Positions 124-23,700 of a DNA stretch of 34,185 nt are shown here, one piece after another (the stretch's first letter is position 1; each line of letters opens with the position of its first letter). A program made the translations under genes and the position numbers. Location: positions 1-34,185 of the forward strand of contig JAUPWI010000003.1 of assembly GCA_030916545.1 (NCBI GenBank), in the 5' to 3' direction. The DNA comes from Patescibacteria group bacterium. Its GTDB lineage: Bacteria; Patescibacteriota; Minisyncoccia; Moranbacterales; UBA1568. Below the pieces are notes generated by a model. It was not told the origin of the DNA and did no database searches. It saw nothing but the letters and a program-made list of their open reading frames with translations.

Positions 124-208
124 GAATGGGAGAAGAAACTTCTCTTTTTTCTTGCGACGTGTTCGGAAACACCAGCATCAAAAAAAGAGAAGTTTCCTCT
201 CACATTCT
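124..208 (+). repeat. Long hairpin repeat A (apex variant 1a, forward)
   Basis: Arms 124-151 and 181-208 pair at about 26/28 positions. Apex 152-180 is CTTGCGACGTGTTCGGAAACACCAGCATC, flanked by T6 and A6 runs. Confidence 0.85.
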
Positions 209-245
209 TTTTGCAGAAAGACAGGTGTGATTTTTCAGTGGTATC

Positions 246-265
246 GACAGCGGTTCAACCGCTAC
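246..265. repeat. 20-nt mini-hairpin repeat, copy 2
   Basis: Identical to 79-98. Lies 53 nt upstream of hairpin repeat B. Confidence 0.6.
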
Positions 266-317
266 TGACCCCTATTGGAATAGGCTTTGAGCTTTGGTAT
301 GGAGCTTTGTGGAATCG

Positions 318-393
318 GGAGGGTGGCTTTGGCTTTTTTCCGATGCTGGTGTTTCCGAACACGTCGCAAGGAAAAAAGTCAAAACCACCCTCC
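318..393 (-). repeat. Long hairpin repeat B (apex variant 1a, reverse)
   Basis: Apex 342-370 (GATGCTGGTGTTTCCGAACACGTCGCAAG) is the exact reverse complement of the A apex. Arms GGAGGGTGGCTTTGGCTTTTTTCC and GGAAAAAAGTCAAAACCACCCTCC pair with 2 mismatches. A T-run follows at 395-400. Confidence 0.85.
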
Positions 394-450
394 TCTTTTT
401 TGTTGAGATGATGAGGGCTCTTTTTTGGACCGATATGGGTAGCAGGAGCT

Positions 451-1380: not shown

Positions 1381-1428
1381 AGTTGATTGAATGAAAACGA
1401 TTGCTCAGTATCAAGTGTTCGATGAGTG

Positions 1429-1506
1429 AGGATGTGGTAAGGTATTCTTTCCCGATGCTGGTGTTTCTGAACACGTCGCAAGGGAAAGAATACCTTACCA
1501 CATCCT
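1429..1506 (-). repeat. Long hairpin repeat C (apex variant 1b, reverse)
   Basis: Perfect 24-bp arms AGGATGTGGTAAGGTATTCTTTCC / GGAAAGAATACCTTACCACATCCT. Apex 1454-1482 is GATGCTGGTGTTTCTGAACACGTCGCAAG. Confidence 0.9.
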
Positions 1507-1579
1507 GAAGCTTATATGAAGAGAGTACTCTGTATCGGGAGTAATATGATTTTTTAGGAATGTGTTGTTGGTTGAAGCT

Positions 1580-1655
1580 GGAAGGATAATTGCTCTTTTT
1601 TCCTTGCGACGTGTTCAGAAACACCAGCATCGGAAAAAAGAGCAATTATCCCTCC
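1580..1655 (+). repeat. Long hairpin repeat D (apex variant 1b, forward)
   Basis: Arms GGAAGGATAATTGCTCTTTTTTCC / GGAAAAAAGAGCAATTATCCCTCC pair at 23/24. Apex 1603-1631 is CTTGCGACGTGTTCAGAAACACCAGCATC. Confidence 0.9.
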
Positions 1656-1744
1656 TTCACGTTTCGGACACCTATCGTATCCCATAGTATCGTGCAGCAA
1701 TGCGCTGTTTTTGATACAGAATGTTCCTTCTAGTTGCTTTTTTG

Positions 1745-1799
1745 GCGCCTCGTATTTTTCTGAACACGTTGTAAGGGAAAGGATACTTTACCACATCCT
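1745..1799 (-). repeat. Truncated hairpin repeat E (paralog of C, left arm lost)
   Basis: The right half aligns to C (…TTCTGAACACGTTGTAAGGGAAAGGATACTTTACCACATCCT). No complementary left arm is present. Confidence 0.7.
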
Positions 1800-1900
1800 G
1801 AAGTGAACATAAAGAGCGCTCTTTACTGATGCATCAGGTCAGTAAAAGGAATATGATTTTTTCAGAAATGCTTTTCCTATGAGATTTGAGATAGATACTA

Positions 1901-1976
1901 AGGGAGTGAGGCTCCTCTTTTTTCTTGCGACGTGTTCAGAAACACCAGCATCAAAAAAAGAGAAGTCTCACTCCCT
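1901..1976 (+). repeat. Long hairpin repeat F (apex variant 1b, forward)
   Basis: Apex 1924-1952 is identical to the D apex. Arms AGGGAGTGAGGCTCCTCTTTTTT / AAAAAAAGAGAAGTCTCACTCCCT pair with about 3 mismatches. Confidence 0.85.
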
Positions 1977-2044
1977 CCATACTTGAGAAACCTTCTGTCT
2001 TAAAGTGTACGAATGATGGAGTGTAGAAATATATTCCTGATGAA

Positions 2045-2125
2045 GCGGAAGGCACTCTCTTGCTTTTTCTGATGCCCCGTATTTCCGAATACGCAGCAAG
2101 GAAAAAGGAAGAGAGAACCTTCCGC
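2045..2125 (-). repeat. Long hairpin repeat G (apex variant 2, reverse)
   Basis: Apex 2071-2100 is GATGCCCCGTATTTCCGAATACGCAGCAAG. Arms GCGGAAGGCACTCTCTTGCTTTTTC / GAAAAAGGAAGAGAGAACCTTCCGC. Lies 35 nt beyond the dnaE stop codon. Confidence 0.85.
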
Positions 2126-2159
2126 ATAGAGACCGTAAAAGGAACTTTTTGAAAATATG

Positions 2160-5100
2160 TTATCCGACTGATTCGACACCCTGGAGCGCACGTATCTGTT
2201 CGAGGGTCGCTTCTTCAGGATCTATGTAGAAGGGTGTATCGATGGTCGTGCCGTGTATCTTGACGAGGACTTTCGTTTCCCCTTTCGGAACGGTTCGAAG
2301 AAAAGCCGAGAGTTCACTGATTAATTTTGCATCTGTTTGTTCCTGAAGGGTAATCAGAAGTTTTGGAGTCGAGGTAGCATTTTCGTCCATTTGAGTCTTC
2401 TCTGAAGCAGATTTTTCACGGGTGATGCGTACGCGTTCGAATTGCGTCAGGGTATCGAGAGAGAGACGTTCAGCGCTTTCGGCAATGCAACGGAGTTGAC
2501 CATCCTTGTGTGAAACTCGGGCATCAATAAGTACGATATCATCTTCTTTCCAGAAACCATCGGTCTGCTCGGCCGTTTTGCCGAAGACGAGGACTTCAGT
2601 CCGACCAGTGAGATCCTCGAGACCGATGAAAAACATCGGATGACCGTTTTTGGTGATCATACGTCTGACTGATGTGACGATACCGCCGATACGGACCCGA
2701 CTTTCGTTTTCTTGTTTTTCTATGTCGATGAGAGCCGTGGTGGTTTCTTTCAAGTAATGACGGTAATCGGAGGCTGGATGTCCAGTAACATAGAGTCCGA
2801 GGAGTTCCTTTTCCCAGGTAAGACGTTGTTGTTTGGAGGCTGGGATAGCTCGTGCGAGATTGATTTTTGTCTTGGGAAGTGGCATAGAGCCAAAAAGACT
2901 GTCGGTATGTGTCTCGGCAAGAGTAGAGGATTGTTTTCCGTAGCGTATGATGGCGTCGATGCTCTCAAGAATTTGTTCGCGTTCACCCAGGGTGTCAAGT
3001 GCTCCAACCTTCGTCAGCGCTTCGACTGATTTTTTGTTAAGATCCTTGGTCTGGACGCGTTCGACGAAGTCTTCGAGACTTTTGAATTTCCCGCCACGCT
3101 TCCGTTCCTTGACGATCTCTTCCGCACAGACCGAACCGACATTCTTGATCGCCTGAAGACCGAACCGGATGCGCTCGATATCGTCGTCTCCCTGGATGAC
3201 CGCGAAGCTCTCGAAGCTTTCATTGATATCTGGTTGTAGAACATCAAGGCCGATTTCGCGTGCTTCTCGTACTTCGATAGCGATGCGGTCGGTATCGTTC
3301 TGATCGCTTGTCAGGAGCGCGGCCATGAATTCGGCTGGATAGTGGGCCTTGAGATAGGCGGTCTGATAACCGATCATCGCGTAGCAAGCGGCGTGAGATC
3401 GGTTGAAACCATAGCCAGCAAACGGTTCGATGAAGGCGAAGACCTGTTCGGCGACGTGTTTGGTGATGCCGTGCTTGACGCAGCCCTCGATGAATTTGAT
3501 GCGTTGTTCGGCGACGAGTTCTTTGATTTTCTTTCCGACGGCTTTGCGGAGCACATCGGCTTCGCCGAGCGAGAAACCGGCAAGGTCGCGGGCGATCTGC
3601 ATAAGCTGTTCCTGATAGACGGCGACGCCGTAGGTGTTCTTCAGAATCGGTTCGAGTTTCGGGTGGAGATATTCGATTTGTTTGGTGCCGTGCTTGCCGC
3701 CGATGAAATCGGGGATGTATTCCATTGGTCCTGGGCGGTAGAGTGCGACCATGGCGATGATATCCTCAAAGACCGTTGGCTTGAGCTGTTTCAGGTAGCG
3801 CTTCATGCCGGTCGATTCGAGCTGGAAGACGCCGGTCGTCCGGGCTTCCTGGAGCACCCGATAGGCCCCCTCATCATCGATCGGCAGCTTGTCCATCACA
3901 TCGGAAACGGAGGCGGTATCCGGGTCGAGCCCGAGCTCATGCGCCAGCGCTTCGAATTTGCCGAGCGCGCGGACGATGCGAAGGGTGTTTTGGATGATGG
4001 TGAGGTTTTTGAGACCGAGAAAATCCATCTTGAGGAGACCGATCTTTTCGACGGCATTATTCTTGGTCGAAGCGGCATACTGGGTGACGACGCCTTCGCG
4101 TGAACCGGAAATCCGTTGAAGGGGGGTGTATTCGGTGACCGGGTCCTTGGTGATGACGACGCCGCAGGCATGCATCGAGGCATGACGGGCCAGCCCTTCG
4201 ATCTTCTGGGCATTGTCGACGAGGCGGCGGACTTCGGCATTGCCTTCGTAATGCGTCTTGAATTCCGGAACTTCCTCCAGCGCCTTCCTGATGGAAGTAA
4301 ACATCGGGATCATTTTGGCGGTCTGGTCGCAAAGAGACAGTGGTATGCCGAGCGCGCGACCGACATCGCGGATCGCACCGCGGGCGGCCATGGTTCCGAA
4401 GGTGATGATTTGTGCGACGTGGTCGGCCCCGAAACGTTCGCGGACGTAGTTTAGGACGTCTTCGCGATGATCATCGGCGAAGTCCATGTCGACATCGGGC
4501 ATGGAGATACGTTCTGGATTGAGGAAGCGTTCAAAGAGGAGATCGTATTGGATTGGGTCGAGGTTGGTAATGCCAGTCAGATAGGCGACGAAGGAACCGG
4601 CGGCCGAACCGCGGCCTGGACCAACAACGACGCCGTTGTCTTTCGCCCAGTTGACGAAGTCCTGGACGATGAGGAAGTATGATGCAAAGCCAGTCTTTCC
4701 GATGATATCGAGCTCGTAGTTGAGGCGAGTGAGCTGTTCTTCCGTCGTCGGAGCATCGCCGAAACGTTCTTTGAGTCCCATTTCGCAGAGCTGGCGCAAA
4801 TAGCCATCGGGGGTGACGCCTTCCGGAAGCGGATACACAGGTAGGTGATTGACCCCGAAGGTGAAGGAGAAATGACAGGCATCGACGATTTTTTGGGTAT
4901 TCTCGATAGCATCCGGAAAGTCTTTAAAAATCTCAATCATCTCTTCGGAGCTCTTGAGTGAGAGGTCAAGCGACATCATAGAGAATCGGTCACGGTCCTC
5001 AACACGTTTGTTATCCCGGATGCAGAGGAGTGTGTCTTGGATACTGGCGTCTTCGCGGCGGACATAGTGCACGTCATTCGCAGCGACGAGAGGAATATTC

Positions 5101-5690
5101 GTCTCCCGTGAAAGCGCGATGAGGCCTTGGTTGACCGCCGCCTGTGTCTCGTGATCGAAATGCGGCTGGATTTCAAGGTAGAAGTTACCCGCTCCAAAAA
5201 TATCCTGGTATTCGAGAGCAGCGAGTTTGGCGCGATCATAGTCACCATAGATGAGCTCGGAAGGCACTTCTCCTTGAAGCGATCCGGACAAGGCGATGAG
5301 TCCCTCGCTGTATTGTCGGAGGAGTGCTTTGTCGGTTCGGGCTTTGTAGTAGAAACCGTCGAGCTGTGCGATGGAAATGATCTTGAGGAGATTTTTATAG
5401 CCGGTCTCGTTTTTGACGAGGAGCACGATAGTGTGCCGACGGCGGTCTTCGGCCGTATTGTTCTTACTGTGAAGATCGTGACAGACGTACATCTCGGCTC
5501 CGATGATTGCCTTGATTCCGTAATCCTTGGCTTTGGTATAAAACTCAACCGCTCCGTACAGAGCCGAGGTATCGGTCAGGGCGAGCGAAGTCTGCCCGAG
5601 TTCTTTGGCGCGTGCTAAAAGTTCTTCTGGCCGGCCGAGTGCGGTCAAAAGAGTGTAATGCGAGTGGACATGGAGGTGGGTGAAGTTCAT
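2160..5690 (-). CDS. dnaE: DNA polymerase III alpha subunit (DnaE)
   Basis: 1176-aa ORF. N-terminal PHP motif FTHLHVHSHYTLL, a Pol IIIalpha core (…MPDVDMDF…), and a C-terminal OB-fold region. Confidence 0.95.
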   Translation of the reverse strand: MNFTHLHVHSHYTLLTALGRPEELLARAKELGQTSLALTDTSALYGAVEFYTKAKDYGIKAIIGAEMYVCHDLHSKNNTAEDRRRHTIVLLVKNETGYKNLLKIISIAQLDGFYYKARTDKALLRQYSEGLIALSGSLQGEVPSELIYGDYDRAKLAALEYQDIFGAGNFYLEIQPHFDHETQAAVNQGLIALSRETNIPLVAANDVHYVRREDASIQDTLLCIRDNKRVEDRDRFSMMSLDLSLKSSEEMIEIFKDFPDAIENTQKIVDACHFSFTFGVNHLPVYPLPEGVTPDGYLRQLCEMGLKERFGDAPTTEEQLTRLNYELDIIGKTGFASYFLIVQDFVNWAKDNGVVVGPGRGSAAGSFVAYLTGITNLDPIQYDLLFERFLNPERISMPDVDMDFADDHREDVLNYVRERFGADHVAQIITFGTMAARGAIRDVGRALGIPLSLCDQTAKMIPMFTSIRKALEEVPEFKTHYEGNAEVRRLVDNAQKIEGLARHASMHACGVVITKDPVTEYTPLQRISGSREGVVTQYAASTKNNAVEKIGLLKMDFLGLKNLTIIQNTLRIVRALGKFEALAHELGLDPDTASVSDVMDKLPIDDEGAYRVLQEARTTGVFQLESTGMKRYLKQLKPTVFEDIIAMVALYRPGPMEYIPDFIGGKHGTKQIEYLHPKLEPILKNTYGVAVYQEQLMQIARDLAGFSLGEADVLRKAVGKKIKELVAEQRIKFIEGCVKHGITKHVAEQVFAFIEPFAGYGFNRSHAACYAMIGYQTAYLKAHYPAEFMAALLTSDQNDTDRIAIEVREAREIGLDVLQPDINESFESFAVIQGDDDIERIRFGLQAIKNVGSVCAEEIVKERKRGGKFKSLEDFVERVQTKDLNKKSVEALTKVGALDTLGEREQILESIDAIIRYGKQSSTLAETHTDSLFGSMPLPKTKINLARAIPASKQQRLTWEKELLGLYVTGHPASDYRHYLKETTTALIDIEKQENESRVRIGGIVTSVRRMITKNGHPMFFIGLEDLTGRTEVLVFGKTAEQTDGFWKEDDIVLIDARVSHKDGQLRCIAESAERLSLDTLTQFERVRITREKSASEKTQMDENATSTPKLLITLQEQTDAKLISELSAFLRTVPKGETKVLVKIHGTTIDTPFYIDPEEATLEQIRALQGVESVG

Positions 5691-5785
5691 GTAATGGGAG
5701 ATACTGGATTCTTGATTTTTGAATTTTTCTCAGGTTGAGTATCGAATATCAGAGTTTATTCGGTTTTGTGTCTAAAGGCCGAAAG

Positions 5786-5822
5786 GGGCTTTTTCTTTGC
5801 TGCGTATTGGTGAGGCACCGAC
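5786..5822 (+). repeat. Decayed hairpin-repeat remnant H1 (variant 2 apex with deletions)
   Basis: CTTTTTCTTTGCTGCGTATTGGTGAGGCACCGA aligns to the H3 apex but with indels. No 3' arm is present. Confidence 0.55.
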
Positions 5823-5855
5823 AATCTGATTGTGTCTTGAGAAGATTCAAAACAA

Positions 5856-5892
5856 CTTTTTCTGATGCTCCTGTATTCGATGACGCGAAGGA
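5856..5892 (-). repeat. Decayed hairpin-repeat remnant H2 (variant 2 apex, reverse)
   Basis: CTTTTTCTGATGCTCCTGTATTCGATGACGCGAAGGA aligns to the G apex, but the apical helix is disrupted. Confidence 0.55.
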
Positions 5893-5912
5893 TATCGGAA
5901 ATTCATTTTTAC

Positions 5913-5995
5913 TTTCGAAGAGTAGAAGTGACTTTTTCCTTGCTGCGTATTCGGAAATACGGGGCATCAGAAAAAGTCACTTCTACTCTTCGAAA
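5913..5995 (+). repeat. Long hairpin repeat H3 (apex variant 2, forward)
   Basis: Perfect 25-bp arms TTTCGAAGAGTAGAAGTGACTTTTT / AAAAAGTCACTTCTACTCTTCGAAA. Apex 5939-5968 (CTTGCTGCGTATTCGGAAATACGGGGCATC) is the exact reverse complement of the G apex. Confidence 0.9.
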
Positions 5996-6148
5996 CATTT
6001 TTTCAACAAAAAATCGCACCAAAATGGAGCGAAAGAGAATTCGAAACTGGGTATTCGAGGTTGGACATGATGATGGTTTCTCTCAGCGCCCGGATCGCTC
6101 CATGGGGTTTGCAGAGAAGCTTAGGATAAGCCCAGTATATCATTTTTT

Positions 6149-10578: not shown

Positions 10579-10914
10579 TTAATGGAGATGTTTCGTTATT
10601 TCCGTCACGATCCCGGAGAGATTCTCGTCAATATCGTTGTTCCAGAACCGCAGGACTGTGTAGTCGAAACCGGAGAAGTATTCTGATCGGGCCTTGTCGC
10701 GTCCACCGTTGTCTCTTCGCTTCCAGCCGTCGATATCGATGATGAGTTTCTTTTCGACGCAGCAGAAATCGACCATATAAGGGCCATGGGTATGCTGACG
10801 AACAAAACGGCACCCGAGAGCCTGATTTTTGAGCCGAGACCAGAGCCTGTTCTCTTGAGGCGTGGAACGCTTGGCTCGCGCGCGTCGGGTATTTTTTTGC
10901 GTGGAGGTAATCAT
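10579..10914 (-). CDS. DUF559 (Vsr-like endonuclease fold) domain protein
   Basis: 111 aa. Contains the pattern …ENRLWSRLKN…GCRFVRQHTHGPYMVDFCCVEKKLIIDIDG… characteristic of DUF559. The stop lies 10 nt upstream of the flippase start. Confidence 0.7.
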   Translation of the reverse strand: MITSTQKNTRRARAKRSTPQENRLWSRLKNQALGCRFVRQHTHGPYMVDFCCVEKKLIIDIDGWKRRDNGGRDKARSEYFSGFDYTVLRFWNNDIDENLSGIVTEITKHLH

Positions 10915-11597: not shown

Positions 11598-11692
11598 AGA
11601 CTGAGAGTATCAAAAAGTGCTATTCTCGGCAATGAGAGGCGATTTTTCGGTCATGAGACAGGATATCGAGAGGCGAAGATGAACTTTTGCAT

Positions 11693-13117
11693 ATGAAAAG
11701 CTTCAATATTTATTTGTTTTTGGTGTATCTTTTTCTGCTACCGTTACAAACGGTGTATTTGTTGCGTGAGCCGATGATTAGTGGGGAGAAGTGGCAGTAT
11801 GGGACTATTGGCATTTATGCTACGGATATTTTGCTGATTCTGATACTTGGATGGTATGGCGTGAGTCGATGGAAGAAGCAGGGTAATATTGAGGGACGAA
11901 GACGTTGGTTGGCGCGTTTGGCTGGAGCGCGAAAACAGCTTTTTCTGATGCCCTTTGCTTCCGAGCAAACAGCAAGGAAAAAGTTCGTTTTTGTGCTCCA
12001 GCATGCGCTGAATCCGTGGTCTCTGAAACGAAGTATCTTCTGTATCAGTTTCATTCTTTGGGCCGGCCTCTCGATATTTTGGGCGCCTGATCGGGTGTTG
12101 GCCGGATACTTTTTCGTAAAGCTGCTTTTGGCGGTCGGAGTCTTCTTTCTGATTCGTTCATTCGGCAGGCGGGAAATAGGCCTGATCATAACAGTGCTCT
12201 TCATGGGAGCGGTACTCGTGAGTGTGTTCGGCATCGGGCAATTCTTGCTGCAAGGCGCATTCGCTTCGTCGTGGCTCGGGATGAGTGGACAGGAAGCGTG
12301 GCAAGCCGGGACATCGGTACTCAAGAACGAAGCTGGTCGTTGGCTGCGGGCGTATGGTACGTTTCCGCACCCGAATATGCTCGGGGGGTATCTTAGCGTC
12401 GTCTTGGTCTTGGGAATAGGGTATCTTACGCAATCGGCACTTTCGATTAAGAAACGATTGCTTTTCGAGGGAGGGGGCATTGTCATCCTCCTTGGTCTCG
12501 TCCTCACTTTTTCTCGTACGGCGTGGCTGGGGATTGTACTCGGGATTACCCTGGTGGGATTTCATGCCTGGAGAGAGCGCGAACCCCGGATCCAGAGGCG
12601 GTTTTTGCAAGTCGTTTTCGCGCTCGGATTAGCCGGACTCGTTTTTGGATCCATTTTGCACGAGCAGATTTTTCCGAGATTCGATACTGCGACAATCGGG
12701 CAGGAAGGTTCGGTAGCGGAGCGGGTCGTATCGTTTCAGGACACCTGGACGCTTATCGGGAAGCACCCCTTCATCGGTGTCGGTGTCGGGAATTCCACGG
12801 TACAACTCATGAAAGAAAATCCCGGTCGTCCGATTTGGGGAATCCAGCCGGCACACAATGTCCCTCTCGTCATTTGGTCAGAGCTCGGCCTGATCGGACT
12901 CTTCCTGTGTATCGGATGCACAGCGTCTTTTTTATTTTCGCTTTCGAAATTTGCGATCTTTGACCTTCAGTCTGCGATTTTCATCGCGCTTCTCCCAAGC
13001 CTCTTCTTCGATCACTGGCTCTGGACCTCGCATTCCGGTCTCGTATTTCTTTTCTTGTCGTTCGGACTGATACGAAGCAGGCATGGTGGCGAGGGTATGA
13101 GACCGGATGGTGATTGA
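11693..13117 (+). CDS. O-antigen ligase-like (Wzy_C) membrane protein
   Basis: Polytopic. Has FSRTAWLG and PAHNVPL motifs typical of the O-antigen ligase family. ATG at 11693 (TTG at 11687 is in frame). Carries hairpin repeat I in frame. Confidence 0.75.
   Translation: MKSFNIYLFLVYLFLLPLQTVYLLREPMISGEKWQYGTIGIYATDILLILILGWYGVSRWKKQGNIEGRRRWLARLAGARKQLFLMPFASEQTARKKFVFVLQHALNPWSLKRSIFCISFILWAGLSIFWAPDRVLAGYFFVKLLLAVGVFFLIRSFGRREIGLIITVLFMGAVLVSVFGIGQFLLQGAFASSWLGMSGQEAWQAGTSVLKNEAGRWLRAYGTFPHPNMLGGYLSVVLVLGIGYLTQSALSIKKRLLFEGGGIVILLGLVLTFSRTAWLGIVLGITLVGFHAWREREPRIQRRFLQVVFALGLAGLVFGSILHEQIFPRFDTATIGQEGSVAERVVSFQDTWTLIGKHPFIGVGVGNSTVQLMKENPGRPIWGIQPAHNVPLVIWSELGLIGLFLCIGCTASFLFSLSKFAIFDLQSAIFIALLPSLFFDHWLWTSHSGLVFLFLSFGLIRSRHGGEGMRPDGD
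11921..12002 (-). repeat. Hairpin repeat I (apex variant 3, reverse) inside a coding sequence
   Basis: Apex 11948-11977 is GATGCCCTTTGCTTCCGAGCAAACAGCAAG. Outer arms GCTGGAGC…/…GCTCCAGC pair imperfectly. Translated as …ARKQLFLMPFASEQTARKKFVFV…. Confidence 0.75.
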
Positions 13118-17786: not shown

Positions 17787-20700
17787 ATGCGTAAAGACGT
17801 CATGCGTTTTCGAGCGAACGGTCACAAAGAAATACCAAAAGCAAAAAAGTCATTCCTTTCTTTCCAGGAATATTTTTCGGTATTTATCAAGAAAAGAAGG
17901 GGGGAACGGTCGTCCAGTGTGGTACGTTCCCGTTTGAAGGCGCTGTGCCGGACACCTATCGGGCCGCGCTTTTCTGTTCAGGAGAAAGCAGAGCGGGCAC
18001 GTGTGGTCATTGAGGCTGAGAGTCTGGAAGAATTCCTGAAGTCCTATGCTGTTACTTCGAAACATAGTTATGGTACGGCCTACTGGCGTCGGCGATCTTT
18101 CTCGCTTTTGAGTGCCTTTGTTGCAAAGTACGCGGCATTTTTTGGAAAAGTGGCGTGGATGTTTTCGTGGCGGAGTAGTATCGCGGCACTGGTCGCGGTA
18201 TTGGTGGTGTACATCGGAGGGATGAATGTGTCGAGCGCGCCGTATGCTCGTACCATTACCACCAAAGCTGAATGGGGATTGGGAGTGACTGATAATCTCT
18301 CCCTTGACAGCGCGGCTGATTCCCTTCAGTTGGCTGGGGATGGAACCTGGTCGGCACGGACCTGGGCGGTGCCACCCGATACGGTCAGCGCCGGATCAAG
18401 CTCCATTTTTCTCGGGGATAATCTATATGTCGTCCGTGGGCTCTCGGACAAAGCGTTCTGGAAATACGATTCGGCACTCAACGTGTGGTCAGAGCTTTCT
18501 GACCTGCCGTTTCCGGTATACTATGGTGCTGACATGGTGGCTGACAGCGCCAACAATCTTATTTATGTTATCTTTGGTGGTTTTTCGAAAAAGTTCTATT
18601 CATACAATGTGGTGACGGACGCCTGGACGGAGCTCCCGGAACTCCTCGATACGCCTTGGACGGGAGCGAGTATTGGGTTTGATGGGACGAATCCTTTTGT
18701 TCTTCGTGGCAATAGCAGTACTGACTTTTGGAAATACAATGTGGCGCTTGGCGAATGGCAAAACTTGGCGCCGATTTCCGCGACGGTATCTGCGGGAGCC
18801 AGTCTCGTCTACGGGTATGATGGAAATTTTTATACGCCACGCGGTGTCAATACGCTGACGTTTTACCGCTACAATATTGCGAGCAATACCTGGAGTGCTC
18901 GTACGAATATCACTGCGGGGCAGCTCTTTAATGGGAGCCAGAAAGGCGCATATGCTAATGGCTATATCTATTATCCGCGTTCGACAGGAACTACGGGATT
19001 TCTCCGATACGATATCGTGGGAAATAGTTGGACGGTGCTTGCGGCGACACCTGCCGTGACAACTGACACCCCGGTGGCTTTCAATGCCAACGACAATAAA
19101 CTCTACATGCTTCGTTCAGCTGGTACCTATGATTTGTGGAAATTTGATCCGACAATCGGGGCAACAGGGGATTGGGTGGGACCACAGCAGGTCCTCAATA
19201 ATACCGGAACTATCGGGACAGGAGGGGATCTTTTCTGGAACGGAGTGACGGGCGCCGGATCATATGTCTATGCCATGCGCGGAGGAGCGGCGGGGTTTTA
19301 TCGTTACAATGTATCCCTTAATACCTGGACGGCCATGAATAATCCGGCGGTGGCTTCGACTACCGATACGACCGGAACATTGGTAAATGATTATGTCTAC
19401 TATCCGCTGGGCAATAACACCACGACGTTTTATCGCTATACGATCTCTACCAATACCTGGGGAGCGATGACGGTTTTGCCGGGTGCAGCTTCCAATGGAG
19501 CGAGCGCTGTATACAATGCTTCGGATAGTCGAGTGTATGTCCTGCGAGGAAACGGCACCTCGAATCTGTACAGTAGTCCGAATAATCCTGTGCTTGCGTG
19601 GACAACGCAGGCATCGACAGTGGTCAGCGGCGTAACTTATCAAGCGAATGTCGGTGCGAGGATGGTATCAGACGGAACAGACCTTTATGCCACAATGGGC
19701 GATGGTGAGACGGCCTTTCTTAAATACAATACGGCTGGCAATACCTGGTCAGCTCTGAAGCAGACTCCTTTTGCGCAGTACTATGGGACGAGCTTGACCT
19801 ATGCAGGCGGCAAGATTTATGCCTTGGCGGGGTATTATAAGGATGAGACCTGGGAATATACCATTGCAACCGACACCTGGAGGCTGCTGCCATCGAATCA
19901 AAAATATCTCTATGGCCGCGGACCTTACAACGGCGCCACTCTCGAATATGTCGGGGGAAGTTCATTTTATGCTTTGACGGGACAGGCGACGACGGATATG
20001 TGGAGCTATACTGCTGGGATGAATAATTTTGCGAGCTCAGGGAGCTATGTGAGTCAGACTCTCGATGTTTCGCAGGCGTCAACTTGGGTGTCGTTTGTGG
20101 TCAATGATGCTCAGCCAGCCAATACCAGTATCGTCTATGAGACACGAACCAGTACTGATGCGAGCTCATGGTCGAGTTGGGAAGCGGTAGTGGGGACGAC
20201 GATTGCATCCCCGGCGCAACGCTATATTCAGGTGCGAATCACGCTGGCTACGAGCGATGGAGTGAGTACGCCGACCGTTTCGGACTATACGATTACCTAT
20301 AATAATTCCGATACACCTCCGACCAATCCATCGGCCGTCAATGCCTATTCACAGGTTTCCGGCGGAGTTTCACTTTCATCAGGGAATACCTACCTCTATG
20401 AGCATCCTTATTTCACCTTTTCCGGCGCCAGTAGTCCTGAAGCGGGCGTGGAAGGGTATTATGTGTATTTCGGAACGAATGCCAGTGCTGACCCGGCGGT
20501 TGATGGATCCTATCAGACCAGCACGACGTATGAAGTCAACCATGGGCTGAATGCGGGTACCTACTATCTGCGGATCAAGACCAAGGACAACAATGGCAAT
20601 GTGAGTATCGGGACATATGCAGCCTTTACTTACATCTACAATGGCGTTTCACCCGCTCTGGTTGAAACCAAAACAAGCCAGGCAGATTTCTCGGCTGGGA

Positions 20701-23700
20701 CACTCAGCGATGTTTCGGCGGGCGATGTGGCTGATGCGATGCGTCTTTCGGCAAGTAGTGGGACGGGATTTTGGAATCAATCCAGGCTTTCGAATATCTC
20801 CGCGAGCGTCTTCTACGGAGGAGACAGTGTTCAGGTGAATTATGCCGGAACCGATTATATTTTCGTGCTTCGGGGTGGCGCCACGACCGGATTTTATCGG
20901 TACGACATTGCGAATAATACCTGGCTTGTTCGGCAGCCAACCCCAGGCAATGTGAGTTACGGTGGGTCTCTCGAGGCTGGACCTGAGGGGTTTCTCTATG
21001 CGACGCAGGGTGGAGGAGCATCGGCTGTCTTCTGGAAGTATGATATCGCTCTGAATTCTTGGACAGCGGTATCGAGCGCGCCGAAGAATTTCGCAGTTGG
21101 GGGATCGATTACATATGACGGGTCACGCTATATCTATGGTCTTCCGGGGAGTGATGACGCGTTTTATCGGTATGACACGACCACTGATTCTTGGAGTGCC
21201 CGGGCCAATGCTCAGTTCGGCAATCCGAATACGGCCGACGGTCAGACGGTGAATTATGATTCGGATAGCGTCTATGATGGACGTAACAACATCTATGTGA
21301 TACAGGGAAATTACTATCCCTACTTCGCCAAGTATTCCATCGCGACCGATGGGGCTTATGGTGAGACGGCCAATACCTGGACGATACTCGCATCCGCTCC
21401 GACCGGTGTCTATACCGGAGGGAGTCTTGCCTACGATACGACGACGGAGAGCGTCTATATGACACGGGGTAACTGGAAGAATAATTATTACAAATATGAT
21501 GTCGGTTTGAATAGCTGGTCGCAACTCCCTGATACGCCGGCAACCTTTGATCAGGGGGCTTCACAGGTGGTGTATAACGGGTATATCTACGCGCTTCGTG
21601 GGGCCAATCAGACGAATTTTTATCGGTACAATATTGCGGAGAGTTCGTGGGAGATTCCGACCAAGGGACTGTTCGGACCATCGATTCCTGGGGGAACGAC
21701 GTACTTCCCTTTTTCATCGGGAACCAATGTGGTAACGGATGGCGGCGAAAACATGTATATGATTCGCGGAAGCTATGACAACGTGTTTCTTCGTTACAAT
21801 GTGGCGACGGGAACGACGACGGAAATGGCCCGGTTGCCGGTCGGTGCTTGGGACGGGTCCAGTCTTGTCTATGTCGGCAACCACGATGAGATTTATTATT
21901 CTCCAGGGGCCATCCGGACGACGCGGAGCGGAGCGAGTAATTATTTCTATAAATATGATATTCCGACCAATACCTGGAGCGAGGTTACCACTGACCGACC
22001 ACCGCTTCAGGTGGGTACGGGATCGAGCATGACTTATGACGGATCGCGTTACATGTATCTGACGCGCGGAGTAGGGACGGCCACCTGGTGGCGCTACGAC
22101 CTTGATGCCGCGGCTGGTTCGCGCTGGTCGTCGGCTTTGTCAGCTGGTCTTGGTACCACGACGACAGGAGGAAAATTGGTGTATAGCGGCGGGTATGTCT
22201 ATGCGGTGCGTGGTGGCGCGGCGACTATCTATCGGTACGATCCGGTCGCGACGACCTGGGCTACGATACCGGCGCTGCCGGCGTCGATCAGCACGGGCGG
22301 CGGTATCGTCGACGGTGGCGATGGGTATCTCTATGTGACTCGGGGTACTAATACCGCGAATAATTATCGGTATCGTATCGCCGACGGACTCGCGGGGACC
22401 TGGGCGAGCGTGACGGATATCCCGGCGCAGGTCAATACCGGAGGGTTCCAGGAGCATGTAAGCAACCGGAACTGGGTAATAGCCGGTAGCGGCACCAATT
22501 CTTATCCGGATGGAGTGTATAGTTTCGTGGTGAGTTCGACCGGTAATGGCACGGGATTTCAAAAGACGGGAACGTATACTTCGGAAGCGCTGGATCTGGT
22601 CTCGGTGTATAAGTGGGCCAGTTTTTCAGCCAACTACACGCTCCCCGATAATACGTTTGTGGCTTTTGAAACAAGGAGTTCGGATGATGGGCTGGCATGG
22701 GATAATTGGGTGGCGGTTTCAAATGAGCAGGTGTTTGGAACAAACCATGTGTTTAAAATCAACTCCGCTCCCAATGGGTATATCCAAGTGCGAGCCACCT
22801 TGTCTTCGTCAGACAGGATCTTCTCGCCGCTGATCACTGAGTATTCGATCGGTTATTATCAGGATATGACCGAGCCGACCAATCCGAGTGCGGTCAGCGC
22901 TTATACGAGTGCCGCCAAGGCGACAGGCATAGCGACGAACACCTGGTACAATCATGCAGCACCCCATTTCGAGTGGCCGGCGGTTGACGCGGTCGGCGGG
23001 GCGACCGATGGTGTGGGCGGGTCGGGTGTGGCGGGGTATTATGTCTATTTCGGTATCGATAGTAACGCCGATCCGGTGACGTTTCAGACGACCAATACCT
23101 ATACGGCGAGCGGTTTGTCAGCCGGGCAAACGTACTATCTGAAGATCATGACTGAGGACAATGCCGGGATGATCACGGCGAGTTCGTACAGCGCCTTTAC
23201 CTATAAATTCGATAATATCGCTCCGACCAATCCGACCATTATTTCTGTCAATCCAACCGGATATACGGCGGTTGATAATTTTATTTTTACTTGGTCATCC
23301 GATGCTGCCGATTCGTTTTCCGGTATTTCCAAGCTGCAGTATCGGACCGATGGCGATGTGGCTGATACCTGGACCGATATCGCTAACCCTGCTGACATCA
23401 CGGTCACGTTGCCTAACGTGAATCATATTGTAGGTGCGTATCAGTCAGGTAAGAATAAATTTTATCTGCGGGTGGTGGACGGCGCTGGTAATGTGTCGAC
23501 TTCACTTTTGCAAGAGTATTACTACAGTGCGAGTGCTCCGACGCCGCCGCAGAACCTGACTGCCACTCCGGCGACGTCCACAGCCAACTCTTTTTCCTTT
23601 TCCTGGGATTCTCCGGCATCCTTTGCGGGGGACGAAGCCGCTATTGTGTATCATTATTCGGTCAACGTGCTGCCAACAGCCAATAATTCCGTCTCGACTG

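Follow-up and report, generated by a model that had tools for sequence, protein, structure and literature searches.

A dispersed hairpin repeat lies in frame in a Wzy_C / WaaL-like gene of a Moranbacteria genome and is probably conserved at the level of nucleic acid, not of protein

In-frame 'selfish' palindromes are textbook material for Rickettsia, where Ogata et al. reportedly described, in 2000 and 2002, Rickettsia palindromic elements (RPE) inserted in frame in protein genes. The small genomes of the Candidate Phyla Radiation (CPR) are assumed to be streamlined, and to our knowledge in-frame palindromes have hardly been examined in this group. Other dispersed hairpins include the REP/BIME/REPIN sequences of proteobacteria and the Correia (NEMIS) and ERIC MITEs; Correia and ERIC elements affect mRNA stability and mRNA processing by RNase III and RNase E. 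RPE have been summarised as dispersed palindromic repeats that are inserted in frame and translated as extra peptides, and intragenic in-frame cases have been recorded for ERIC as well (PMC10969869). In this study, we compared with these systems a hairpin inside a protein gene of a Patescibacteria group bacterium (contig JAUPWI010000003.1, positions 1 to 34,185; hereafter the window, meaning this whole stretch of 34,185 nt).

A sequence-only reading of the window had proposed a hairpin repeat in frame in an O-antigen-ligase-like gene of 476 codons, and its main points held. The host protein scores 78.5 bits (E 6e-22) for Pfam Wzy_C (PF04932), whose cut-off is 31.7, and the top solved-structure match of its AlphaFold model is WaaL 7TPG (E 4e-5). 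Its 297 homologs bear names of the type O-antigen ligase family, Candidatus Moranbacteria. Near-identical database proteins measure 474 aa, which makes the ATG at 11693 the probable start. The protein has at least ten hydrophobic segments, among them residues 5-28, 38-61 and 113-136, and the long loop between the second and third of these (TM2-TM3, residues 61-113) is basic as claimed, with 12 K/R and 2 D/E; by the positive-inside rule, this hairpin-bearing loop is cytoplasmic. The AlphaFold model falls below a pLDDT of 50 over residues 78-113 and is of high confidence elsewhere.

The hairpin itself is closed by the pair G11921-C12002 and is far more stable than shuffled sequence (shuffle mean -27.3 kcal/mol, z = -6.98), with none of 200 shuffles folding as stably (Table 1). 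Position 11921 is base 1 of codon 79 and 12002 is base 1 of codon 106, so that the hairpin is read in the host protein as AGARKQLFLMPFASEQTARKKFVFVLQH; a tryptic peptide within this loop is QLFLMPFASEQTAR (residues 84-97), and the DNA directly 3' of 12002 is ATGCGCTGAATCC. The covariance model R1, whose seed alignment included this hairpin, matches 11919-12003 at 80.2 bits on the plus strand (E about 1e-16) and at 20.9 bits on the minus strand; the orthologous Wzy copies outside the seed score 80.0 (L124), 75.9 (L125) and 74.6 bits (L126). The core pattern is matched three times against 0.02 expected. This count and the covariance-model score together exclude a chance hairpin, and the complete anatomy of the repeat family is present: outer stem, T-run/A-run helix, GAU/AA internal loop, GC clamp, apical stem and UUCYGA loop.

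Table 1 Coordinates of the host gene, the parts of its hairpin and the other repeat copies in the window
Feature	Position	Strand	Remarks
Host gene, Wzy_C / WaaL-like polytopic membrane protein	11687..13117 (ORF)	+	476 aa
Whole hairpin, in-frame family copy	11921..12002	+	MFE -49.9 kcal/mol; codons 79-106 of the host gene
5' outer arm GCTGGAGCGCGAAAACAGC	11921..11939	+	Pairs with 11984-12002; sequence differs among copies, pairing kept
Conserved core	11940..11983	+	T-run + C, UGAUGC side of internal loop, apical stem TTTGC/GCAAA, GCAAGG, A-run + G
Apical loop TTCCGA (U-UCCG-A)	11959..11964	+	TTCYGA in 53/54 aligned copies
3' outer arm TTCGTTTTTGTGCTCCAGC	11984..12002	+	Three G·T wobbles with 5' arm, good on + strand only
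Family copy, intergenic	124..208	-	78.9 bits
Family copy, 54 nt past miaA stop	313..397	+	80.0 bits; miaA 451..1380 (-)
Family copy, 45 nt upstream of miaA start	1425..1509	+	76.6 bits
Family copy, dnaE-miaA spacer	1576..1660	-	78.4 bits
Half copy, cut at apex	1757..1803	+	Outer arm is that of copy 1425-1509; direct repeat D7, 85% over 60 nt
Family copy, dnaE-miaA spacer	1897..1981	-	77.6 bits
Family copy, 33 nt past dnaE stop	2042..2127	+	81.0 bits; dnaE 2160..5690 (-)
Half copies, cut at apex, near copy 5912..5997	5783-5819, 5841-5875		Repeats D13, I15
Family copy, 222 nt upstream of dnaE start	5912..5997	-	88.2 bits

The Wzy copy is one of eight full copies of an approximately 85-nt repeat family in the window, which also holds apex-cut half copies; that at 1757-1803 gives a weak covariance-model match at 1713-1803. 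The hairpin had been described as a third apex variant, and the apical stems indeed read GTGTT/AACAC in five copies, GTATT/AATAC in two and TTTGC/GCAAA in the Wzy copy. Its peptide had likewise been said to resemble the translation of other copies, and FFPMLVFPNTSQGKKS, the translation of the copy at 313-397 from base 334, is in the equivalent frame. Related contigs hold about 63 copies, all with the conserved core, which collapse into about 42 clusters of related copies. Family members are 82-86 nt long (73-97 nt among the copies traced) and have no coding capacity. In each, outer arms of variable sequence pair over about 17-20 bp, followed inwards by the T-run/A-run helix, the conserved GAU/AA internal loop, a 2-bp GC clamp and an apical stem that covaries (GC, AU, UA and CG pairs), spans about 5 bp and carries the UUCYGA loop. 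The conserved letters, TTTTT, GATG, TTCYGA, GCAAG and AAAAA, are all internal; the core columns 11940..11983 are invariant or almost so across 54 copies, and 22 of the 27 stem pairs covary across the family. Arms are shared between copies only in local duplicates and in one subfamily, that of genome JAGOBM.

The family is strand-specific in its pairing. In the outer stems, 73 G·U pairs fall on the element strand versus 26 on the opposite strand (p = 2e-6), and the collapsed clusters show the same preference, 24 versus 6 (p = 0.0014). Its genomic placement follows gene ends: of the close gene contacts, 21/29 are downstream of a stop codon, most intergenic copies lie 14-95 nt past stops, and inverted pairs spaced 60-150 nt apart are frequent. 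Orientation relative to the nearest gene (13 opposite, 8 same) gives no bias in transcription sense among the family copies, and orientation relative to local GC skew (31:30) gives no replication-strand bias. Approximately one-third of the copies would be antisense to all adjoining transcripts, and this does not sit easily with a simple role as RNA. As far as sampled, the family is confined to a clade of Candidatus Moraniibacteriota. Viral contigs yielded zero matches to the core pattern, and a phage origin was dropped.

Compared with described repeats, the family resembles REP and BIME sequences in being multi-copy, non-coding imperfect palindromes with polarity, and in lying extragenically near gene ends as inverted pairs with short spacers. 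It is, however, more than twice as long as the 20-40 nt of REPs, lacks their GTAG-type 5' tetranucleotide and keeps its conserved parts in the apex and internal loop while its arms vary; the RAYT (HUH) gene of REPs is absent from the window, among whose genes no transposase of HUH/RAYT or other type was found. With Correia and ERIC elements, which are co-transcribed with adjoining genes, it shares the long near-perfect stem-loop. In those MITEs the terminal inverted repeats are conserved and target sites are duplicated, whereas here the arms vary and no consistent direct repeats were seen at the hairpin feet among the copies, about half of them, in which the helix was traced; the family is small, multi-copy and non-coding as MITEs are, without their conserved termini. 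Intrinsic and SPRITE-like terminators are similar in placing hairpins near gene 3' ends, and the JAGOBM hairpins, with an A-run on one side and a T-run on the other, look like bidirectional terminators. In contrast, the Wzy copy and most other window copies have no following T-run, and their internal T-run and A-run sit within the stem on the 'wrong' sides of the core; the Wzy hairpin was also absent from a terminator scan, and this identity was rejected.

The closest parallel is with RPE. In both cases a palindromic repeat lies in frame in a housekeeping-type gene, leaves the fold undisturbed and is inherited vertically in a clade. The two are likened by mode of insertion and not by sequence, the hosts being Rickettsia on one side and a CPR bacterium on the other. 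RPE measure about 100-150 nt versus 82-86 nt for the Wzy element, and nearly half of them are genic. Here the only copies in homology-supported genes are those in Wzy, or about 1/42 independent copies, which indicates that in-frame insertion is no habit of this family. Constraint on the nucleotides and hairpin within the gene, together with a core flipped in one subclade, further distinguishes the present case. The kind of event is thus known, and the family itself matches no Rfam family: three tRNAs were the sole matches in the whole window at gathering thresholds, and a permissive search with the hairpin returned at best a generic miRNA-precursor hairpin (20 bits against a threshold of 100). 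Literature searches for such repeats, palindromic or of REP type, in CPR/Patescibacteria yielded nothing but unrelated papers, and the family is not described in the papers searched.

Alignment with orthologs identifies a lineage-specific segment, in agreement with the RPE-like insertion originally suggested. All relatives with RtcB at least 90% identical carry the Wzy copy, and the segment is present in 20/20 of the closest orthologs (P0001-P0020, 50-99% identical), in 17 of them in the orientation of the window and in three with a variant peptide. The next relatives, about 49% identical or less, lack approximately 35 residues exactly at the hairpin site. In carriers, the invariant residues D47 and W125 lie 77-80 aa apart, and in the flipped subclade 68-74 aa; for most other homologs this spacing is 27-56 aa, with 42-45 aa as the typical range. 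The insertion reading would have been undermined by the same loop in genomes free of the family; instead, the L008 and L009 loci lack both, since the covariance model found no family copy in the 17-21 kb around these non-carrier orthologs, nor in 77 other CPR Wzy_C loci. A search of close genomes for a clean empty site returned only rearranged or deleted derivatives with imprecise boundaries, and with an insert of about 35 aa around a hairpin of 28 aa, the insertion edges cannot be drawn. Gene order around the Wzy_C loci is conserved among the relatives compared. The segment is a translated, tolerated in-frame insertion, as in the RPE scenario.

In L006 and L125, the variant peptide is the family core read flipped, and the encoded peptide, SFSLLFARKQMASEKAV, is unrelated to that of the window. 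L006 carries, besides the flipped core, a new 3' arm; about 30 nt downstream, in another frame, is what is left of the old arm, TCGTTTTTGTG. In this subclade, the strand in the sense of the mRNA forms no G·U pairs and folds at -37 and -35 kcal/mol; its complement, antisense to the mRNA, forms three to four and folds at -43 and -48 kcal/mol. In other CPR Wzy_C genes (L132, L144, L201, L143, L171, L152 and L008), the same TM2-TM3 loop holds palindromes unrelated to the family, and a few other homologs with such palindromes have a D47-W125 spacing of 82-91 aa. The loop was considered as a unique hot spot, and this was rejected, as strong in-frame palindromes also occur near residues 255, 300 and 425 of other CPR Wzy_C homologs; these three further sites mark the loop as permissive rather than special.

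Conservation within the gene points to nucleic acid as the object of constraint. Across the hairpin, codon positions 1/2/3 are identical at 0.87/0.89/0.89, whereas third positions average 0.57 in the remaining gene and protein-constrained segments show the usual codon pattern (e.g., 0.93/0.99/0.60); no other 28-codon window of the host gene exceeds a third-position identity of 0.71. Between the window and L007, third positions are 0.96 identical in the hairpin versus 0.42 in the remaining gene. Third-position identities of 0.52 in dnaE and 0.47 in RtcB between the window and L001 indicate that neutral divergence is near saturation. In the basal helix, formed by the outer arms and the T-run/A-run, nine pairs (20 cells) have changed on both sides among nine orthologous Wzy copies, compared with 0-3 pairs in slid controls, and 97.6% of structure cells remain paired. 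These compensatory changes alter the protein, from GARKQ to GIRKQ and from FVFVLQ to FVSVFQ. Judged from these substitution patterns, the hairpin appears to be conserved as nucleic acid and not as protein, and does not behave as a passively decaying insert. Some of this covariation and conservation could also arise if one arm templates the repair of the other, or by gene conversion from other copies; against this caveat stands the apex variant of the Wzy copy, which is kept in all carriers.

We consider it likely that the Wzy hairpin is an RPE-like in-frame insertion of a dispersed REP-like hairpin repeat held by selection on nucleic acid. A family copy would have landed in the basic TM2-TM3 loop in the ancestor of the subclade with RtcB at least 90% identical, its inserted length preserving the host reading frame. 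Translation through the copy has since added about 28 residues to a poorly ordered loop, and the enzyme tolerates them. Three features would then reflect selection: compensatory changes hold the long stem, amino-acid changes notwithstanding; the unpaired bases of the internal loop (GAU/AA) and the bases of the apical loop (UUCCGA) are retained without change; and pairing is optimised on the element's own strand. Selection would act on the element itself, not on the peptide or on control of the Wzy mRNA. We infer that the element functions like its intergenic sisters, most likely as a single-stranded stem-loop, and RNA is somewhat more likely than single-stranded DNA as the acting form. A factor acting in trans would recognise the stem-loop, as for the hairpins of REP, ERIC or Correia elements, which stabilise, end or mark transcripts. 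Its presence in Wzy would be an insertion accident that is hard for the host to undo, and no device built for Wzy.

The evidence bears differently on the other readings. The sequence-only reading had offered, besides insertion, an mRNA hairpin serving as a processing or regulatory site. Selection for such a cis-acting element of the Wzy mRNA (a ribosome pause after TM2, an RNase III/RNase E site or an internal attenuator) would account for frozen synonymous sites being confined to the hairpin within the host gene and for unrelated palindromes in the same loop of other CPR Wzy_C genes, and the basal helix of about 27 bp is compatible with RNase III, for which that length suffices. We nevertheless regard it as quite improbable: the family is otherwise intergenic, in-frame palindromes occur at three other Wzy_C sites too, and the flipped subclade, by both wobbles and folding energy, pairs better antisense to the mRNA. 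A role for the inserted peptide itself, for instance as an amphipathic cytoplasmic regulator of the ligase with the hairpin as a relic of its origin, fares much worse. The segment is in frame and stop-free in all carriers, with an amino-acid identity of 0.77, but half or more of the six frames in family copies are open anyway, conservation lacks codon periodicity, compensatory stem changes swap residues, the flipped subclade encodes an unrelated peptide, and pLDDT is low at the segment; we give this reading very little credence. Palindromes can in principle cause misassembly, and a pseudogene would have undone the insertion reading from another side, yet either artefact is scarcely conceivable here, as the same hairpin occurs at the same place in contigs of at least eight independent samples from four sources, and the ORF is full length in nine orthologous loci (independent assemblies from NCBI, JGI, ENA and Logan) with the family-invariant residues of Wzy_C retained.

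Two further readings are possible, though we hold each to be rather unlikely. The element may work as single-stranded DNA: a hairpin would extrude while the DNA is replicated or repaired, and an HUH/RAYT-type enzyme or recombinase would recognise it, which would explain both spread and upkeep. Strand-specific pairing alongside an orientation indifferent to host transcription would fit, as would the palindrome dynamics recorded in the apex-cut half copies (1757-1803, 5783-5819, 5841-5875), the rearranged arms and flipped core of L006, and the BIME-like inverted pairs. On the other hand, the GC-skew bias expected for enzymes acting on the lagging-strand template is absent, the window has no HUH or other transposase gene, and G·U wobbles (mean 1.4 per copy) and a UCCG (UNCG-type) loop in 31/54 copies are more typical of RNA. 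Doubtful to the same extent is the broader proposal that the hairpin is a strand-specific structured module needed by the host, such as a small RNA or a protein-binding site in RNA or single-stranded DNA, with the Wzy_C loops of CPR bacteria serving as recurrent landing pads that couple such modules to cell-surface synthesis. A putative module embedded in coding sequence throughout the history of the clade would mean 84 bases bearing two codes at once.

The clear conserved loop motif of the family implies that a binding partner should exist. More generally, a coding stretch can bear a constraint that is stronger than, and differently shaped from, that on the encoded protein, and the combination of aperiodic conservation, compensatory stems and strand-specific wobbles is liable to be misread by annotators and by dN/dS-type analyses. 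Unrelated in-frame palindromes in Wzy_C genes of many CPR lineages suggest a general route by which repeats remodel loops in surface-polysaccharide enzymes.

Several other identities were considered and rejected. A hammerhead or box C/D k-turn, suggested by eye from 'CUGAUG', does not fit, as the partner GCAAGG lacks GA/CUGA and the motif is CCGAUGC in many copies. That the hairpin is cut out of the mRNA and the ends are re-ligated by the neighbouring RtcB is a remote idea, RtcB being syntenic in the hairpin-free L009 and RNase III ends being unsuited to RtcB. TIGR or CRISPR-like arrays were dismissed because family copies are dispersed and self-complementary, not tandem guides. Finally, several repeat-rich contigs carry the label 'uncultured Bdellovibrionales'; the DnaE of one of them, L066, is 94% identical to that of the window, which places it in the same Moranbacteria clade.

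The hairpin in the Wzy_C gene is a real, in-frame palindromic insertion, as the sequence-only reading had proposed, and every element of that observation (the hairpin, the intact frame and the basic loop between TM2 and TM3) was borne out. As a single strand, it forms one extended hairpin (-49.9 kcal/mol), an energy equalled by none of 200 dinucleotide shuffles (mean -27.3, z = -6.98). Its first base opens codon 79 and its last is the first base of codon 106, and it encodes the peptide AGARKQLFLMPFASEQTARKKFVFVLQH; the peptide quoted in that reading for copy 313-397 in the equivalent frame was likewise reproduced by translation. Judging by the 474-aa length of near-identical database proteins, the host ORF probably starts at the ATG at 11693; its product belongs to the Wzy_C/O-antigen-ligase family (Pfam PF04932, 78.5 bits against a cut-off of 31.7). 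Among solved structures, the AlphaFold model (pTM 0.78) is most similar to the WaaL ligase 7TPG; its confidence is high for most residues but falls to pLDDT <50 at residues 78-113, the inserted stretch. Hydrophobic segments span residues 5-28, 38-61 and 113-136, and the loop at 61-113, containing 12 K/R and 2 D/E, is predicted to be cytoplasmic by the positive-inside rule.

Ortholog comparison indicated a lineage-specific gain, the outcome named beforehand as support for an in-frame insertion. The segment is present in all 20 of the closest proteins (50-99% identical to the window protein), as the standard form ...KQLFLMPFASEQTAKKKFVF... in 17 and as the variant FSLLFARKQ(R/M)ASEKAVF in three, and is absent from the next relatives, at about 49% identity or less. 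The spacing between the invariant residues D47 and W125 is 77-80 aa in standard carriers, 68-74 aa in the variant subclade and 27-56 aa (typically 42-45) in most other homologs, with 82-91 aa in a few homologs bearing unrelated palindromes. The gene order flippase, tmk, Wzy_C, rtcB, GT4 and ychF is common to carriers and non-carriers; RtcB identity is 90-98% among the compared carriers (L001, L002, L003 and L005) and 72% to the non-carriers L008 and L009. With a covariance model of the repeat family, no copy was detected within the 17-21 kb around L008 and L009 or in 77 other Wzy_C loci of CPR bacteria. The segment is therefore a gain specific to this lineage, and it accompanies the presence of the repeat family. 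Misassembly is excluded because the same hairpin was recovered in different samples, assembled by NCBI, JGI, ENA and Logan sources. The dispersed hairpin repeat inserted once, into a permissive basic loop, and the insert is presumably translated, as the reading frame is unbroken in every carrier.

Coordinates of the hairpin repeats and other features (window positions unless a contig of a relative or other CPR bacterium, L-number, is given)
Feature	Location	Strand	Remarks
Wzy hairpin	11921-12002	+	GCTGGAGCGCGAAAACAGC-TTTTTC-TGATGCCC-TTTGC-TTCCGA-GCAAA-CAGCAAGG-AAAAAG-TTCGTTTTTGTGCTCCAGC
Host ORF (Wzy_C)	11687..13117	+	476 codons
Full family copy	124-208	-	
Full family copy	313-397	+	
Full family copy	1425-1509	+	
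Full family copy	1576-1660	-	
Full family copy	1897-1981	-	
Full family copy	2042-2127	+	
Full family copy	5912-5997	-	
Full family copy (Wzy copy)	11919-12003	+	model-match span
Half copies	1757-1803; 5783-5819; 5841-5875		each ends at or beside the apical loop
Flipped-core copies in Wzy gene	L006 5160-5270; L125 1386-1472	antisense to mRNA	proteins P0013-P0015
Palindrome, TM2-TM3 loop	L144 880-957		-42 kcal/mol; peptide IPGLTRD...VKPGMT
Palindrome, TM2-TM3 loop	L132 1393-1461		
Palindrome, TM2-TM3 loop	L201 974-1051		
Palindrome, TM2-TM3 loop	L143 3166-3369		peptide ...NQVQDDK
Palindrome, TM2-TM3 loop	L171 835-984		-77 kcal/mol
Palindrome, TM2-TM3 loop	L152		
Palindrome, TM2-TM3 loop	L008/L131/L128		A+T-rich type
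Palindrome near residue 255	L146-L148 (L146 3610-3729; L148 3565-3684)		
Palindrome near residue 300	L160 1799-1918; L149 2667-2786		
Palindrome near residue 425	L133 2061-2180		
Short hairpin repeat	78-98; 245-265		GACAGCGGTTCAACCGCTAC
DUF559 gene	10579-10914	-	Vsr-like endonuclease fold
dnaE-miaA spacer	1641-2160		three full copies, one half copy
dnaE-rnhB intergenic block	6003-6145		~140 nt
2526-aa ORF	17787-25367	+	internal repeats about 1-1.2 kb (D4, D5, D8, D11)

The window holds eight full copies of the family, as well as half copies whose ends suggest breakage or rearrangement at the hairpin tip. The 54 aligned copies share one architecture: an outer stem of ~17-20 bp, differing in sequence from copy to copy; a T5-6/A5-6 helix; a conserved small internal loop, 5'-GAU/5'-AA, with U·G, U-A or C-G as its outer closing pair; a two-pair GC clamp; a second small internal loop; and an apical stem of ~5 bp capped by the loop TTCYGA. 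The apical stem covaries (GTGTT/AACAC, GTATT/AATAC, TTTGC/GCAAA, TACGC/GCGTA, CATGTT/AACATG), and RNAalifold found double-sided changes in 22 of 27 pairs. The element has polarity, since full-length seed copies score 63-88 bits on the element strand but 21-36 bits when the complement is searched. The copied unit is the whole hairpin, beyond its core, with arms drifting later, because many copies in the JAGOBM genome have identical outer arms, and copy 1425-1509 and half copy 1757-1803 have arms and flank in common. Of one copy that is intact in both the window and L001, a relative (L002) retains just the 3' arm. Another, shorter hairpin repeat lies beside repeat copies at two places in the window, and a similar one (GATAGCGGTTGAACCGCTATC) occurs in L002 and L005.

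A pattern scan of species-representative genomes placed the family, among the matches listed, in several Candidatus Moraniibacteriota assemblies. Many copies were also observed on contigs labelled 'uncultured Bdellovibrionales' (L014, L036, L038, L039, L049, L053, L063, L064, L066, L071 and L081). DnaE of L066, the sole such contig checked, is 94% identical to that of the window and therefore places L066 in the same clade; the label is probably wrong, and those MAGs would belong to the Moranbacteria clade. No Rfam family matched the repeat, the core pattern was not found in viral contigs, and searching the literature for palindromic or REP-type repeats in CPR/Patescibacteria yielded no relevant paper.

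Among ~63 copies in all DNA examined, only the Wzy copies lie inside a long, homology-supported gene, the remaining 'genic' copies falling in short unsupported ORFs (about 100-190 aa). Where the neighbouring gene has 200 aa or more, 21 of 29 close contacts lie beyond its stop codon, up to 94 nt downstream, and one copy overlaps the gene end; 13 copies are oriented opposite to that gene and eight alike. Copies often form inverted pairs 60-150 nt apart, and their orientation showed no association with local GC skew (31:30). No target-site duplication was evident at the hairpin feet, with helices traced in about half of the copies, and the window encodes no transposase; its genes comprise miaA, dnaE, rnhB, a PMT-like protein, flippase, a DUF559 protein, tmk, Wzy_C, rtcB, a GT4 glycosyltransferase, ychF, a 2526-aa Kelch-like protein, macB/ftsX, groEL, topA and dprA. 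The DUF559 gene lies between flippase and tmk in the window and L007 and is missing from that position in L001, L002 and L005, and is therefore a presence/absence polymorphism.

Purifying constraint acts on the insert at the level of a structured nucleic acid with strand specificity. In a codon alignment of seven carriers, mean pairwise identities in the hairpin codons and in the rest of the gene were 0.89 versus 0.71 for nucleotides, 0.89 versus 0.57 for third codon positions and 0.77 versus 0.65 for amino acids. In the most distant pair, window and L007, third-position identity reaches 0.96 in the hairpin but is 0.42 outside it; neutral sites are near saturation, given that third-position identity between window and L001 is 0.52 in dnaE and 0.47 in rtcB. 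Any other 28-codon stretch of the gene reaches at most 0.71 at third positions. Codon periodicity is absent from the hairpin (positions 1/2/3, 0.87/0.89/0.89), whereas the protein-constrained residues 195-235 show the usual pattern (0.93/0.99/0.60). The stem is kept through compensation: in nine orthologous copies, 97.6% of structure cells are paired, and both-side changes affect nine pairs (20 cells), against 4.3 pairs in column shuffles and 0-3 when the structure was slid by 1-3 columns. From window to L002, for example, GGAGCGCGA...TTGTGCTCC becomes GGAATACGG...CCGTATTCC, altering GARKQ to GIRKQ and FVFVLQ to FVSVFQ. The peptide is thus a by-product, and what persists is the hairpin together with its unpaired letters. 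Paired changes could also arise without selection, through arm-to-arm templated repair (quasi-palindrome correction), but this process leaves the conserved unpaired letters and the long-kept asymmetry of the core unexplained. Gene conversion from sister copies could help to maintain the core, although the Wzy copy has its own apex variant in all carriers.

Strand polarity is visible in the wobble pairs. A G·U (G·T) wobble on the hairpin-forming strand becomes an A·C mismatch on the complement, so wobbles are tolerated only on the former. In the outer stems of the 54 copies, wobbles number 73 for the element strand but 26 for its complement (p = 2e-6), a count that may be slightly biased by the energy filter used to pick the copies. 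In a second set, picked by the model on the asymmetric core, with weaker copies added and related copies collapsed into 42 clusters, the excess lay on the element strand in 24, on the other strand in six, and was equal in 12 (p = 0.0014). The selected form is therefore single-stranded, with the polarity of the element itself.

In the L006/L125 subclade, the mRNA reads CCTTGC..TCGGAA..GCATC, with the family core at the identical place in the opposite orientation; the covariance model matches the minus strand at 76-77 bits, and the encoded peptide is unrelated, yet the reading frame is preserved. On the element strand, here antisense to the mRNA, these copies have 3-4 wobbles, whereas the sense strand has none. 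The antisense strands fold at -43 and -48 kcal/mol and the sense strands at -37 and -35. The loop of this subclade is 6-12 residues shorter than in L001. The L006 5' arm (TTCGAGGGACGAAAACGATC) matches the upstream flank of L001 (TTCGAGGGGCAAAGACATC). Because this flank is repeated directly, 27 nt further along, as the L001 5' arm, the match is consistent with the loss of 27 nt between the two repeats. About 30 nt downstream of the present hairpin, 11 nt of the former 3' arm (TCGTTTTTGTG) persist and are read in another frame. The flipped copy thus looks more like local remodelling of the existing element than a new insertion. Whichever its origin, it speaks against a function linked to the sense Wzy mRNA; the suggested processing or regulatory mRNA hairpin is not favoured, as the flipped core has its best fold and its wobbles antisense to that mRNA. 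A terminator role for the Wzy copy was also rejected.

The family would act as a single-stranded stem-loop recognised by some factor, and we lean slightly towards RNA as the acting form. Frequent wobbles, a UCCG (UNCG-type) loop in 31 of 54 copies and the position of copies just past stop codons, like REP, ERIC and Correia hairpins, which affect mRNA ends, favour RNA. Single-stranded DNA is possible, if rather less probable: copy orientation is indifferent to the transcription of neighbours, and the apex-ended half copies, the flip and the rebuilt arm are palindrome dynamics in DNA.

Among known systems, Rickettsia palindromic elements (RPEs), which are in-frame, translated, tolerated and vertically inherited (PMC10969869), are the closest analogue of the insertion event; however, the Wzy copy is not an RPE member in any tested sense, and unlike RPEs the family is almost never genic. 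In habit the family is closest to REP/BIME, sharing extragenic location, position past gene ends, inverted pairs and polarity, but its anatomy is not close to theirs. It differs from MITEs in lacking conserved terminal repeats and probably also target duplications. In the Wzy copy, a REP-like repeat of a CPR bacterium has inserted in frame in the manner of an RPE, and the evidence that this coding stretch is under constraint as a hairpin with a definite polarity is unusually clear.

Wzy_C genes of CPR bacteria seem commonly to carry palindromes in frame. Homologs of other CPR lineages contain unrelated, strong ones (-27 to -77 kcal/mol), with peptide types including PGLTRD../..VKPGMT, ..NQVQDDK and VILSE../..FAQNDG. 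The TM2-TM3 loop is a frequent landing place, not an exclusive one, because palindromes also occur near residues 255, 300 and 425.

Several other features of the window were recorded. The dnaE-rnhB intergenic block (TTTTCAACAAAAAATCGCACC...GGAGCGAAAGAGAATTCGAAACTGGGTATTCGAGGTTGGACATGA...CGGATCGCTCCATGGGGTTTGCAGAGAAGC) is almost invariant in five genomes, in which dnaE third positions are only about 0.5 identical. Its 1-nt indels mark it as non-coding, nested helices (ATGGAGCGA/TCGCTCCAT) are visible by eye, and searches for an Rfam match or a tmRNA were negative; it is a candidate small RNA. The dnaE-miaA spacer is 97-98% identical in L032, where the adjoining dnaE 3' end is only 76-85% identical, and L001 has just 104 nt at this position; the spacer may be either constrained throughout or recently exchanged. 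The 2526-aa ORF encodes a giant repeat protein whose orthologs give faint Kelch and fn3 matches and whose synteny downstream of ychF is conserved.
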